Virus record (IMG/VR): IMGVR_UViG_2563366888_000003
DNA: 19,451 nucleotides
Reading direction: 5' to 3' (one strand)
DNA from: a virus
Taxonomy: Duplodnaviria > Heunggongvirae > Uroviricota > Caudoviricetes
A program made the translations under genes and the position numbers. Numbering within the stretch: position 1 is the first letter of the stretch; the number at the start of each line of letters is the position of its first letter. Positions 257 to 3,655 of the stretch are shown here, one piece after another. The notes under the pieces are model-generated. The model saw nothing but the letters and a program-made list of their open reading frames with translations, was not told the DNA's origin and made no database searches.

Positions 257-640
257 ATGCGTGATATTCAGATGGTTCTTGAGCGTTGGGGAGCGTGGGC
301 GGCTAATAATCATGAAGATGTGACCTGGTCGTCCATTGCCGCCGGTTTTAAGGGATTAATTACTTCAAAAGTAAAATCTCGCCCGCAATGTTGTGACGAT
401 GACGCTATGATCATTTGCGGGTGCATGGCCCGTCTGAAAAAGAACAACAGCGATTTGCACGATTTATTAGTAGATTATTATGTAGTCGGTATGACATTCA
501 TGTCACTGGCAGGTAAGCATTGCTGCTCTGATGGTTATATCGGGAAAAGGTTACAGAAGGCTGAGGGCATAATTGAAGGGATGTTAATGGCATTAGATAT
601 CCAGTTAGAGATGGATATCGTTGTTAATAACTCTAATTAA
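257..640 (+). CDS. Q: Late-gene antiterminator Q (phage 82 / DLP12 QuuD-type), 127 aa
   Basis: Translation [34 protein letters not shown]... with Cys-rich motifs, recognised as a QuuD/Q82-family antiterminator. ATG at 257 chosen with GGAG 8 nt upstream; the six-frame track start at 242 is a TTG. TAA stop at 638-640. Confidence 0.85.
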
Positions 641-660
641 TATGCCAATTGTTTACTAAA

Positions 661-691
661 AATTATTAAAAATGGGGCGTTGAGACGCCCC
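661..691 (-). terminator. Candidate rho-independent terminator for the minus-strand porin transcript
   Basis: GC-rich stem GGGGCG (674-679) / CGCCCC (686-691) with a 6-nt loop. Read on the minus strand the hairpin is followed by ATTTTTAATAA (complement of 663-673). Confidence 0.45.
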
Positions 692-779
692 CAAAAATAA
701 AGGGTAATATATAACAGAAGGTTTATATAGTTAGAAGCAAGGTTGTGCTTCTAAAGGAAGTGGCTTGAGGGAGCCACTT

Positions 780-819
780 ATATGTTGGGGAGGCAACGCC
801 TCCCGCAACATATCTTTTT
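780..819 (+). terminator. Candidate rho-independent terminator on plus strand downstream of Q (tR'-like), lying in the porin 3' UTR
   Basis: Imperfect 15-bp stem ATATGTTGGGGAGGC (780-794) / GCCTCCCGCAACATAT (798-813), loop AAC, followed by CTTTTT (814-819). Confidence 0.4.
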
Positions 820-829
820 CGTAATCAGA

Positions 830-1912
830 TTAGAACTGGTAAACCAGACCTACAGCGACGATGTCGTCGGTATCAATATCAGCTGTTTTGGTAAACTTAC
901 TATCGTCAATTAAGTTGATTTTGTAATCAACAAAAGTGGACATGTTTTTATTAAAGTAGTAAGTAGCACCGACATCGACATACTTGACTAAGTCTCGGTC
1001 ACCATGAACACCAAGGTCTTTACCTTTTGACTGAAGGTAAGCAACAGATGGGCGCAGACCGAAGTCAAACTGATATTGTGCTACTGCTTCAAAGTTTTGT
1101 GCTTTGTTTGCAATATGGTTATTACCAAAAACGGTCATATTCTGAGTTTCAGAATATGTGGTAGCCAGATAGATATTGTTCGCATCATATTTCAGGCCTG
1201 CAGCCCATACTTCCGCATTTTTGCCGGAGGCATTGAATTTGCTCTTACCATAGGCGACCTGACCGTCAGTGCGATCTGATTTAGCATAGGTTGCACCCAC
1301 GCCGAATCCTTCATACTCATAAGTAGTGGAGAAACCGAAACCATCACCATTGGCTTCAGTTACGTCAGTGCGGTCATTTTTACCCTGATACTGAGCAGCA
1401 AAGTTCAGGCCATCGACCAGACCAAAGAAGTCGTTGTTACGATAAGTTGCAACACCAGTAGTGCGACCAGTCATGAACACATCTGTTTGGGTCCAGGTAT
1501 CACCACCGAATTCTGGCAGAACGTCAGTCCACGCACCGATGTCGTATGCTACACCGTAGTTACGGCCGTAATCGATTGAGCCGTAATCACCAAATTTCAG
1601 GCCTGCAAATGCAAGACGGGTTTTGTCTTTGGAAGAACCTTGAGATTCAGCGCGGTTGCCTTTGAATTCATATTCCCACTGACCGAAACCAGTCAGTTGA
1701 TCGTTGATTTGGGTTTCACCTTTGAAGCCAAGACGGGCATAAGTAGTATCACCATCATCTGCATCATTAGAGGAGAAGTAGTGCTTAGCATTAACTTTCC
1801 CGTACAGATCCAGCTTGTTACTGTCTTTATTATAAATTTCAGCTGCCTGAGCAGACATCGCCATCAGTACTGATGCAGCTACAGCAGAAATTGCCACTGT
1901 TAATTTTTTCAT
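830..1912 (-). CDS. nmpC: Phage-encoded general porin (OmpC/PhoE family; Lc of phage PA-2 / NmpC of DLP12 type), 360 aa precursor
   Basis: Translation from the ATG at 1910-1912 begins [23 protein letters not shown] followed by AEIYNKD (signal peptide with AQA cleavage site), carries OmpC-like motifs and ends in the beta-barrel C-terminal motif YQF. The six-frame track ORF extends 20 codons further upstream (to 1972), which I reject in favour of the signal-peptide start. Confidence 0.9.
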
Positions 1913-2340
1913 CGTGAGCCCTTTTTTTGAACTATTATTAAAAAATGATGTCACTGCGCGATAAATATTCATCTAATCAATGTGATTATTTCAAGATGTA
2001 AGTTTTGGTTTCTCGTTTGATTTGTGAAGTAGATCTCTATTTTTATCTGAACTTTTTTCTATCGAATCCTATTCATGGCTCTTGGCTGAATAAAAATAAA
2101 TCTATTAGCCAATTTATATTAATGGCTGTTATTTATAAGTGCTCTATAATTTGAAGGTTCAATTTAAATCGGCTAAAAATAACGCTGGAAATTATTTGTT
2201 GGTTATTTGTTGAGATTTGCTTATGTATTTGTAGTGGTGTTTTCAATACTCGGTAGCATTCTCGCAAATATCATTTAGTGGTTTACGTACGTAAAAAATT
2301 GGTTATGCTGTTAAGAGTGGTTACTTCGTCACACAGCTTA

Positions 2341-2372
2341 AACCCGCCGTCGAGCGGGTTTTTCCATTTTTT
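2341..2372 (+). terminator. Rho-independent terminator upstream of the lysis cassette
   Basis: Stem AACCCGC (2341-2347) / GCGGGTT (2354-2360), loop CGTCGA, followed by TTTCCATTTTTT (2361-2372). Confidence 0.5.
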
Positions 2373-2484
2373 GAGTCTCGATATTAGCTGATAACCCAAT
2401 ACCTGAGTTATTCACTGACTCCGAGTCTGTTACGTTTCGTAGTATTCCCTCAATTTACACCCGCTTTGTCTGCGAGGTGGGGTT

Positions 2485-2700
2485 ATGAAATCCATGGATA
2501 AGTTAACAACGGGTGTCGCCTATGGCACCTCAGCAGGTAGTGCCGGGTACTGGTTTTTACAGCTGCTAGATAAAGTCACGCCCTCACAGTGGGCGGCAAT
2601 TGGAGTGCTGGGTAGCCTGGTATTTGGCCTGCTGACGTACCTGACAAACCTTTATTTCAAGATTAAAGAAGATAAGCGCAAGGCTGCGAGAGGTGAATAA
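2485..2700 (+). CDS. S: Class II holin, phage 21 S21-type pinholin with dual-start motif (antiholin from Met1, holin from Met4)
   Basis: [71 protein letters not shown]: two transmembrane segments, charged C-terminal tail, Met1-Lys-Ser-Met4 dual start. RBS GAGGTGGGG upstream. The stop overlaps the R start (TAATG). Confidence 0.9.
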
Positions 2701-3197
2701 TGCCTCCATCATTACGAAAAGCCGTTGCTGCTGCTATTGGTGGCGGAGCAATTGCTATAGCATCAGTGTTAATTACTGGCCCAAGTGGTAACGATGGTCT
2801 GGAAGGTGTCAGCTACATACCATACAAAGATATTGTTGGTGTATGGACTGTATGTCACGGGCATACAGGAAAAGACATCATGCTCGGTAAAACGTATACC
2901 AAAGCAGAATGCAAAGCACTCTTGAATAAAGACCTTGCCACTGTCGCCAGACAAATTAACCCGTACATCAAAGTCGATATACCGGAAACAACGCGCGGCG
3001 CTCTTTACTCATTCGTTTACAACGTGGGTGCTGGCAATTTCAGAACATCGACGCTTCTTCGCAAAATAAACCAGGGCGATATCAAAGGCGCATGTGATCA
3101 GCTACGTCGCTGGACATATGCTGGCGGTAAGCAATGGAAAGGTCTCATGACTCGTCGTGAGATTGAGCGTGAAATCTGTTTGTGGGGTCAGCAATGA
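2700..3197 (+). CDS. R: SAR endolysin (phage 21 R21-type lysozyme with N-terminal signal-anchor-release domain)
   Basis: Gly/Ala-rich N-terminal segment [20 protein letters not shown] followed by the T4-lysozyme-like catalytic triad positions E35, D44, T50 counted in the translation. Coupled to the holin stop. Confidence 0.9.
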
Positions 3198-3655
3198 ACA
3201 GAGTAACCGCGATTATCTCCGCTCTGGTTATCTGCATCATCGTCTGCCTGTCATGGGCTGTTAATCATTACCGTGATAACGCCATTACCTACAAAGCCCA
3301 GCGCGACAAAAATGCCAGAGAACTGAAGCTGGCGAACGCGGCAATTACTGACATGCAGATGCGTCAGCGTGATGTTGCTGCGCTCGATGCAAAATACACG
3401 AAGGAGTTAGCTGATGCGAAAGCTGAAAATGATGCTCTGCGTGATGATGTTGCCGCTGGTCGTCGTCGGTTGCACATCAAAGCAGTCTGTCAGTCAGTGC
3501 GTGAAGCCACCACCGCCTCCGGCGTGGATAATGCAGCCTCCCCCCGACTGGCAGACACCGCTGAACGGGATTATTTCACCCTCAGAGAGAGGCTGATCAC
3601 TATGCAAAAACAACTGGAAGGAACCCAGAAGTATATTAATGAGCAGTGCAGATAG
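3194..3655 (+). CDS. Rz: Rz i-spanin (inner-membrane spanin subunit)
   Basis: [26 protein letters not shown]... with N-terminal TM segment and coiled-coil periplasmic domain, near-identical to lambda Rz as I recall it. ATG at 3194 overlaps the R stop (ATGA). The track start at 3182 is a GTG. Confidence 0.9.
3414..3596 (+). CDS. Rz1: Rz1 o-spanin lipoprotein, fully embedded in the +1 frame of Rz
   Basis: [24 protein letters not shown]... with lipobox VVGC, Pro-rich mature region [15 protein letters not shown], 60 aa, matching lambda Rz1. Confidence 0.88.

Follow-up and report, generated by a model that had tools for sequence, protein, structure and literature searches.

IpeX is a small RNA (sRNA) of 167 nt encoded by the DLP12 prophage of Escherichia coli. 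A review describes it as a part of the porin transcript that is initiated at the porin promoter, and as a product processed from this longer transcript. Reviews record the experimentally observed repression of both OmpC and OmpF by IpeX, reportedly a post-transcriptional effect of its overexpression, and EcoCyc lists the RNA among the sRNAs between chiX and sokE. Reviews further state that IpeX acts without base-pairing to ompC or ompF and has no sequences complementary to them, one review being softer in its wording; those up to 2023-2025 still describe IpeX as acting without sequence complementarity. Like CpxQ, SdhX and StxS (the last from the PR' leader), IpeX is one of those sRNAs that are released from an mRNA and share its terminator. 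Castillo-Keller, Vuong and Misra (2006, J Bacteriol 188:576) reportedly presented IpeX as controlling porins by a "novel mechanism" that does not depend on sequence complementarity, and the original abstract is said to describe ompC repression as less Hfq-dependent than ompF repression.

The stretch of DNA analyzed here (the window) comprises the 19,451 nucleotides of the virus record IMGVR_UViG_2563366888_000003 and is of the DLP12/PA-2-like lambdoid prophage type of E. coli. Its gene order is rusA-ylcG-quuD (quuD at 257-640, plus strand), a porin gene (830-1912, minus strand), essD-rrrD-rzpD (from 2485, plus strand), bor/iss, and the terminase, head and tail genes. The 341 bases from 560 to 900 were 100% identical to E. 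coli VR50, whose annotation at 803771-823221 agrees with the open reading frames of the window. Our analysis was focused on the spacer at 641-829. Its left border is the end, at 640, of quuD, which encodes a Q-type late antiterminator of 127 amino acids (Pfam Phage_antitermQ over the full length, E = 3e-53; quuD is the RefSeq name). QuuD is 77% identical to Q of the Stx phages 933W and VT2-Sakai and distantly matches the Q21 structures 6P18 and 6JNX. To the right, the spacer adjoins the stop codon (830-832, minus strand) of an intact prophage porin of the NmpC/Lc type with 360 amino acids (Pfam Porin_1 over the full length, E = 1e-150), and it is the transcript of this gene that carries IpeX.

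All 189 of the 189 bases of the spacer were identical to the quuD-nmpC spacer of DLP12 in E. coli K-12 MG1655. Identity was likewise 100% to phage 434 and to the sequence that follows lc in PA-2 (J02580). Since the corresponding regions of DLP12 and PA-2 are those of ipeX, the spacer is ipeX. The initial annotation had proposed an IpeX-like sRNA derived from the porin 3' UTR, to be examined by alignment to DLP12 ipeX, and this alignment revealed ipeX itself, base for base. On the minus strand, the segment that begins right behind the porin stop codon (829) and reaches to where the U-run region of the terminator ends (663) measures exactly 167 nt, and we placed the ends of ipeX, read from 829 to 663 as the 3' UTR of the prophage porin, according to this published length. 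The RNA and its terminator are the same as in DLP12 and PA-2, and so is its location on the porin strand, right behind the nmpC/lc stop codon. Thus, ipeX at this locus is known biology that has been described since 2006 and is not new.

The locus differs from that of K-12 in its upstream part. In the DLP12 prophage of K-12, nmpC, which is the same porin gene, is interrupted by IS5, and the insertion separates ipeX from the porin promoter, whereas the upstream porin gene of the window is intact. In this strain, porin and IpeX can thus be expected to be expressed together. A promoter scan detected no sigma-70-like promoter on either strand of 641-829, and the absence of an internal promoter-like site fits the synthesis of IpeX from the porin promoter. 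As a genome feature, ipeX is ordinary: the spacer is carried by 2510 of 5426 complete E. coli genomes, that is, by nearly half of them. Nevertheless, the locus appears to be unannotated in RefSeq and Rfam. RefSeq lacks an ipeX annotation in MG1655 and in every match that was inspected, and Rfam has no IpeX model. The Rfam search gave no match at the gathering score in the whole window and none at E <= 10 within 641-829 (560-2500 searched).

The minus-strand RNA from 832 to 660 folds with -63.4 kcal/mol, compared with -30.7 ± 3.5 kcal/mol for dinucleotide-shuffled sequences (z = -9.3; none of 200 shuffles was as good). For the plus-strand spacer RNA, z was -5.7. The folding that had been recommended for this region thus showed both strands to be far more stable than shuffled sequence. 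The four stem-loops noted in the initial annotation were all recovered at their places by an inverted-repeat scan, which additionally found a weak fifth hairpin consisting of A-U pairs only (708-714/723-729). Numbered along the minus strand, hairpin 1 (780-813) begins 16 nt past the porin stop codon and is composed of an 8-bp outer stem, a 1-base bulge, a 7-bp inner stem and a 3-nt loop (arms 780-790/803-813, inner arms 788-794/798-804). Hairpin 2 (758-779; arms 758-765/772-779) has 8 bp and a 6-nt loop, and hairpin 3 (731-754; arms 731-739/746-754) has 9 bp and a 6-nt loop, both according to the fold. The additional weak element, hairpin 4 (708-729), was seen in the inverted-repeat scan and the fold; it has seven A-U pairs, and its loop and 3' arm hold the predicted anti-ompC seed described below.

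The transcript ends at an intrinsic terminator (664-691, minus strand) with a stem of 691-685/680-674, a loop of 684-681 and the subsequent sequence AUUUUUAAUA. The terminator scan called this element as a stem at 691-674 with 6 G-C pairs followed by ATTTTTAATA, in agreement with the GC hairpin and T-run previously proposed to end the porin 3' UTR on the minus strand. The U-rich sequence UUUAUUUUU lies upstream of the terminator hairpin, and the tail consists of A plus UUUUU, i.e., of five U, whereas a 3' module for Hfq is expected to have approximately six or more. With this short tail, the IpeX 3' end would probably be a poor Hfq module. Like other 3'-UTR-derived sRNAs, IpeX carries a conserved single-stranded seed directly upstream of the terminator of its parent mRNA; unlike them, it has a short U-tail, and the role of Hfq has been reported as partial or absent.

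Conservation was analyzed in an alignment of 12 distinct variants with 88-100% identity, E. albertii included; the 80 IMG/VR loci were almost all identical and of little use for covariation. Among the 12 variants, 34 columns vary, and their distribution is uneven. In a block of 31 nt at 694-724 (minus strand; IpeX nt 106-136, AAACCUUCUGUUAUAUAUUACCCUUUAUUUU), a single column of 31 varies, compared with 33 of 136 elsewhere (Fisher p = 0.006). Outside this block, 11 of 83 paired positions vary versus 22 of 53 unpaired ones (p = 0.0004). Thus, the stems are protected. Stem and U-run of the terminator are invariant in the 12 variants, the variation of this element being confined to its loop. Hairpin 1 shows a single compensatory pair, an apical change from C:G to U:A in E. 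albertii, and a shift of the bulge in PhiR63_2/4C10. In hairpin 2, two apical pairs are broken in three to four variants; hairpin 3 has changes from A-U to G-U, and most of its remaining variation is in the loop. The one compensatory pair in the 12 variants is not significant, as 192 of 500 shuffles did as well, and covariation is uninformative here because all homologs are at least 88% identical. In hairpin 4, changes of the 5' arm (IpeX nt 103 and 105) occur without compensation in the 3' arm, which argues that selection in the conserved block acts on the sequence and not on the stem.

On the plus strand, hairpin 780-813 is followed by CTTTTT (814-819), and these two elements, which had been regarded as a terminator, are indeed present. 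However, the terminator scan made no call at this place, probably due to the bulge in the stem, and the T-run is not conserved: CTTTTT is replaced by CTTTTA or CTTTGA in 5 of the 12 variants. A role of the plus-strand hairpin as a conserved terminator is therefore doubtful. These data also bear on the idea that the main role of the spacer is to insulate the two convergent genes from each other's transcription, with the minus-strand terminator ending porin transcription, hairpin 780-813 stopping read-through from Q, and the sRNA activity as a by-product. The convergent geometry, the clear minus-strand terminator and the very stable plus-strand hairpin, with CUUUUU behind it in this window, all agree with such a function. 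However, an insulator would have no use for three further hairpins and an invariant single-stranded block of 31 nt, the plus-strand T-run is not conserved, and the activity of IpeX on OmpC and OmpF has been shown experimentally in the literature. We therefore consider insulation as the main function improbable; the insulator and sRNA roles are not mutually exclusive.

The function of IpeX as an sRNA raises the question of what the near-invariant block does. IpeX was compared with the region from -70 to +30 of ompC, ompF, ompA and the phage porin in a home-made, accessibility-corrected duplex scan, in which windowed duplex energies were combined with the opening energies of both RNAs. The windowed scan was substituted for full-length IpeX-leader duplex folding, which gave meaningless whole-molecule hybrids, and the pairings are predictions. 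In the best predicted duplex, IpeX nt 107-121 (709-723, minus strand; AACCUUCUGUUAUAU) pair with positions -21 to -7 of ompC (AUAUAACAGAGGGUU) in 15 contiguous pairs, 14 of them Watson-Crick and one G-U, which cover the Shine-Dalgarno sequence. The hybrid energy was -20.2 kcal/mol and the net energy after opening costs -14.1 kcal/mol (-12.9 net in a coarser control scan with a step of 2). Only 1 of 100 dinucleotide-shuffled leaders was as good, and none was among 520 natural segments of 100 nt or among 23 translation-initiation regions of phages. Nearly all E. coli genomes (5367 of 5371) share the ompC leader itself with at least 99% identity.

The predicted anti-ompF seed lies directly beside the first one. 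IpeX nt 121-130 (700-709, minus strand; UAUUACCCUU) would pair with positions -14 to -5 of ompF (GAGGGUAAUA) in a core of 10 pairs, extendable to IpeX nt 114-131 versus ompF -14 to +3. Here, the hybrid energy was -15.4 kcal/mol and the net energy -8.9 kcal/mol, and 3 of 100 shuffles and 2 of 520 natural segments were as good. The leaders of ompA and of the phage porin itself gave background values (-3.7 and -3.8, respectively), the latter having only a 6-nt match to IpeX. By computation, IpeX possesses an accessible, conserved seed complementary to the Shine-Dalgarno region of its targets.

The two predicted sites resemble those of the host sRNAs MicC and MicF. When computed likewise, MicC gave -22.5 kcal/mol on ompC at -34 to -14, and MicF gave -23.4 kcal/mol on ompF at -17 to +8. 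The MicC site overlaps the predicted IpeX site on ompC (-21 to -7), with similar hybrid energies (-22.5 versus -20.2 kcal/mol), and the MicF site coincides with the predicted IpeX site on ompF (-14 to +3). Furthermore, nt 1-7 of MicC (GUUAUAU) are identical to IpeX nt 115-121. There is, however, no overall homology: IpeX is the 3'-UTR product of a phage porin, whereas MicC and MicF are free-standing genes of the core genome. Also unlike MicC and MicF, IpeX holds both seeds on one RNA, side by side and partly overlapping, and its pairing is only predicted.

Whether these matches are functional has to be weighed against the possibility that IpeX acts indirectly or in a non-antisense manner, by titrating a protein or an RNA or via its hairpins, and that the complementarity to the Shine-Dalgarno regions is fortuitous. 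This would be in line with the reviews, which deny base-pairing and complementarity, and with the description of IpeX as Hfq-independent. Moreover, IpeX and the leaders are A/U-rich, and long runs of pairs with such Shine-Dalgarno-like sequence are not very rare: 20 of 2000 shuffles reached 15 contiguous pairs, and the run of 10 in ompF is ordinary when taken alone (1045 of 2000 shuffles). The three 5' hairpins are also well kept, a feature that the seed model leaves unexplained. Against a chance origin, the match is located on the Shine-Dalgarno sequence of both experimentally reported targets, it falls within the sole nearly invariant block of IpeX, and the ompC energy was unequalled in 520 natural segments and similar to that of the validated MicC-ompC duplex. 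As to the statements in the literature, the 15-base match to the ompC ribosome-binding site has apparently been overlooked so far. Its longest perfect Watson-Crick run is 10 nt, and we infer that a word-based search, such as BLAST with a word size of 11, would miss it. On these grounds, an indirect or non-antisense action appears rather unlikely, yet it deserves to be taken seriously.

A simple antisense mechanism for IpeX is likely, and we consider the following model of it reasonably probable. IpeX would be an ordinary antisense sRNA in which a single 31-nt block contains two adjacent, partly overlapping anti-Shine-Dalgarno seeds, one of 15 bp for ompC and one of 10 bp for ompF, so that the functions of MicC and MicF would be packed into a porin 3' UTR. 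According to the literature, the RNA forms the end of a porin transcript that starts at the porin promoter; by its sequence, it ends at the conserved terminator (691-664), its layout being three stable hairpins, then the near-invariant block, then the terminator. The upstream hairpins probably stabilize or delimit the RNA, and the 31-nt block would be the working part, with nt 107-121 pairing with ompC -21 to -7 and nt 121-130 with ompF -14 to -5. As both duplexes would cover the Shine-Dalgarno sequence, ribosome binding would be blocked and the host porin messages silenced, while the leader of the phage porin, with its 6-nt match only, would escape. The net effect would be the replacement of the host porins by the phage porin in lysogens, a form of lysogenic conversion. 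The receptor of PA-2 is OmpC. Given this receptor, IpeX would also exclude superinfecting phage.

If the model is true, the long ompC duplex as opposed to the short ompF duplex would explain the lesser Hfq-dependence of ompC repression. If it is confirmed, IpeX would be a phage moron that swaps the host porins for its own via one dual-seed 3'-UTR RNA. The predicted pairing offers a concrete mechanism of the antisense type, open to test, for an RNA whose action is still called non-antisense or indirect in reviews. Overall, we are confident that the minus strand of 641-829 encodes the known ipeX and that the spacer is not the late promoter, with the conserved block as the probable working part in the silencing of ompC and ompF.

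Two observations concern the possible origin of the conserved block. Read on the plus strand (697-724), it has the sequence AAAGGGTAATATATAACAGAAGGTTT and resembles an ompF-type leader, GAGGGTAATAAATAA, joined to an ompC-type leader, ATATAACAGAGGGTT. This hints that the seeds may have arisen by inverted capture of porin leader sequence. In addition, several genomes of Enterobacter and its relatives have an exact 13-nt match to IpeX nt 121-133, located on the opposite strand and ~700 nt upstream of genes for OmpC/OmpF-like porins (six loci, at ~483-526); each match is at chance level (E = 0.6), while the position recurs in orthologous loci.

The distribution of the spacer was then compared with those of its two neighbors. 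Among the phage records, 401 carried a QuuD-like Q and 36 carried the spacer, and the porin adjoined the spacer in all spacer-bearing phage records that were fetched. In E. coli STEC299, porin and spacer adjoin ybcM, without Q. In E. albertii (locus 2296-3495), porin and IpeX adjoin ycgN/ycgM-like genes, again without Q, and the homology stops directly after the terminator U-run. Thus, the spacer is linked to the porin and not to Q, and the occurrence of porin and IpeX without an adjacent Q in E. albertii and STEC299 indicates that the cassette moves or survives independently of other prophage parts. Related porins outside these species gave no counterpart. When 80 species-representative loci encoding related porins were compared (Salmonella, Citrobacter, Enterobacter, Klebsiella, Serratia and others), an IpeX-like 3' UTR was confined to E. 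coli and E. albertii; the OmpD-type porin genes on the chromosomes of Salmonella, Citrobacter, Enterobacter and other genera were without one.

In lambda, the PR'-6S-tR' unit directly follows Q. The initial annotation had accordingly considered a Q-dependent late promoter and qut site within the spacer, which would make the plus strand a late-leader unit with PR', qut, a short 6S-like RNA, and tR' formed by hairpin 780-813 and CTTTTT. What the spacer shares with the lambda unit and with the PR'-StxS-tR' unit of Stx phages is only a superficial plus-strand geometry, namely a strong hairpin with five T's ~175 nt past the Q stop codon. Unlike these units, it has neither a promoter nor homology to them. 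In positions 1-2600 of the window, the scan found only two promoter-like sites, both inside Q (454-506) and none directly downstream of Q.

The closest characterized Q is that of the VT2-Sakai/933W type (77% identity), and the VT2-Sakai record has a putative late promoter, qut and terminator annotated at the 3' end of Q. The block consists of TTTACG, 16 nt, TATCAT, then, further on, AAGAGTGGTTAC and a hairpin with a T-run. Comparison with this PR'/qut region led away from the spacer, as the block aligned to 2282-2366, 1.6 kb downstream of the spacer and beyond the porin. The Sakai PR' start has been mapped by dRNA-seq to a position 258 nt upstream of tR' (Sy et al., 2020), which is consistent with the annotated Sakai promoter and the second annotated terminator. 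The PR' block was found in 363 phage records, compared with the 36 that carry the spacer, and the sampled matches of 77-78% identity with annotation were located at or under the 3' end of Q. The presence of the spacer without Q in STEC299 and E. albertii and the degraded T-run in 5 of 12 variants likewise argue against a late-leader unit at 641-829. A lambda-like PR'-6S-tR' unit in the spacer was rejected on homology, for want of a promoter and in view of the PR' block at 2282-2372; we regard it as extremely improbable.

The counterpart of the lambda and Stx late leader units, and judging by the alignment the actual late promoter block of this Q type, is 2282-2372 (plus strand). It contains TTTACG as the -35 element (2282-2287), TATGCT as the -10 element (2304-2309), a putative start near 2316, the conserved leader AAGAGTGGTTAC, and, at 2340-2361, a hairpin with an adjoining T-run, which the scan called as a terminator-like site. 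The block is located 113 nt before essD. By analogy with the Stx phages, which make StxS at this place, it should yield a leader RNA of ~50 nt in lysogens. In Sakai, transcription apparently continues past the equivalent first hairpin, since the StxS precursor mapped there has 258 nt. The 1986 record of PA-2 (J02580) marks two CRP-binding sites upstream of lc, at 1434-1454 and 1730-1750, which correspond to approximately 2036-2056 and 2332-2352 of the window; one of these annotated sites falls within the PR' leader/terminator block.

Since the PR' block aligns beyond the porin, the porin-ipeX cassette (~641-2280) is an insert between Q and Q's own promoter. QuuD (600-640 compared) ends 19 codons before the Q of VT2-Sakai (record 3340-3435), whose C-terminal tail overlaps PR'. 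Owing to this shorter QuuD, the left junction of the insert seems to be at the very end of Q, and the porin-ipeX insert seems to have replaced the Q tail. The position of the late promoter behind a 1.6-kb porin-ipeX insert in this lineage is relevant for annotating and engineering prophages of the DLP12/PA-2 type.

Some minor observations concern the annotation of the neighboring genes. The porin at 830-1912 is labeled "ompC: porin OmpC" by RefSeq/PGAP, its true type being the NmpC/Lc phage porin, and this mislabel could mislead porin typing in resistance work. Hairpin 1 contains the start of an open reading frame of 43 amino acids (782-913, plus strand), which extends into the porin gene in antisense orientation and is unlikely to be a real gene. 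In the PA-2 record J02580, a 69-codon "ORF1" (180-389) starts at the equivalent position. Finally, a lipoprotein-like open reading frame of 60 amino acids at 3414-3596 (plus strand), located out of frame within rzpD, is rzoD (Rz1), which is annotated in MG1655 and absent from the RefSeq annotation of VR50.
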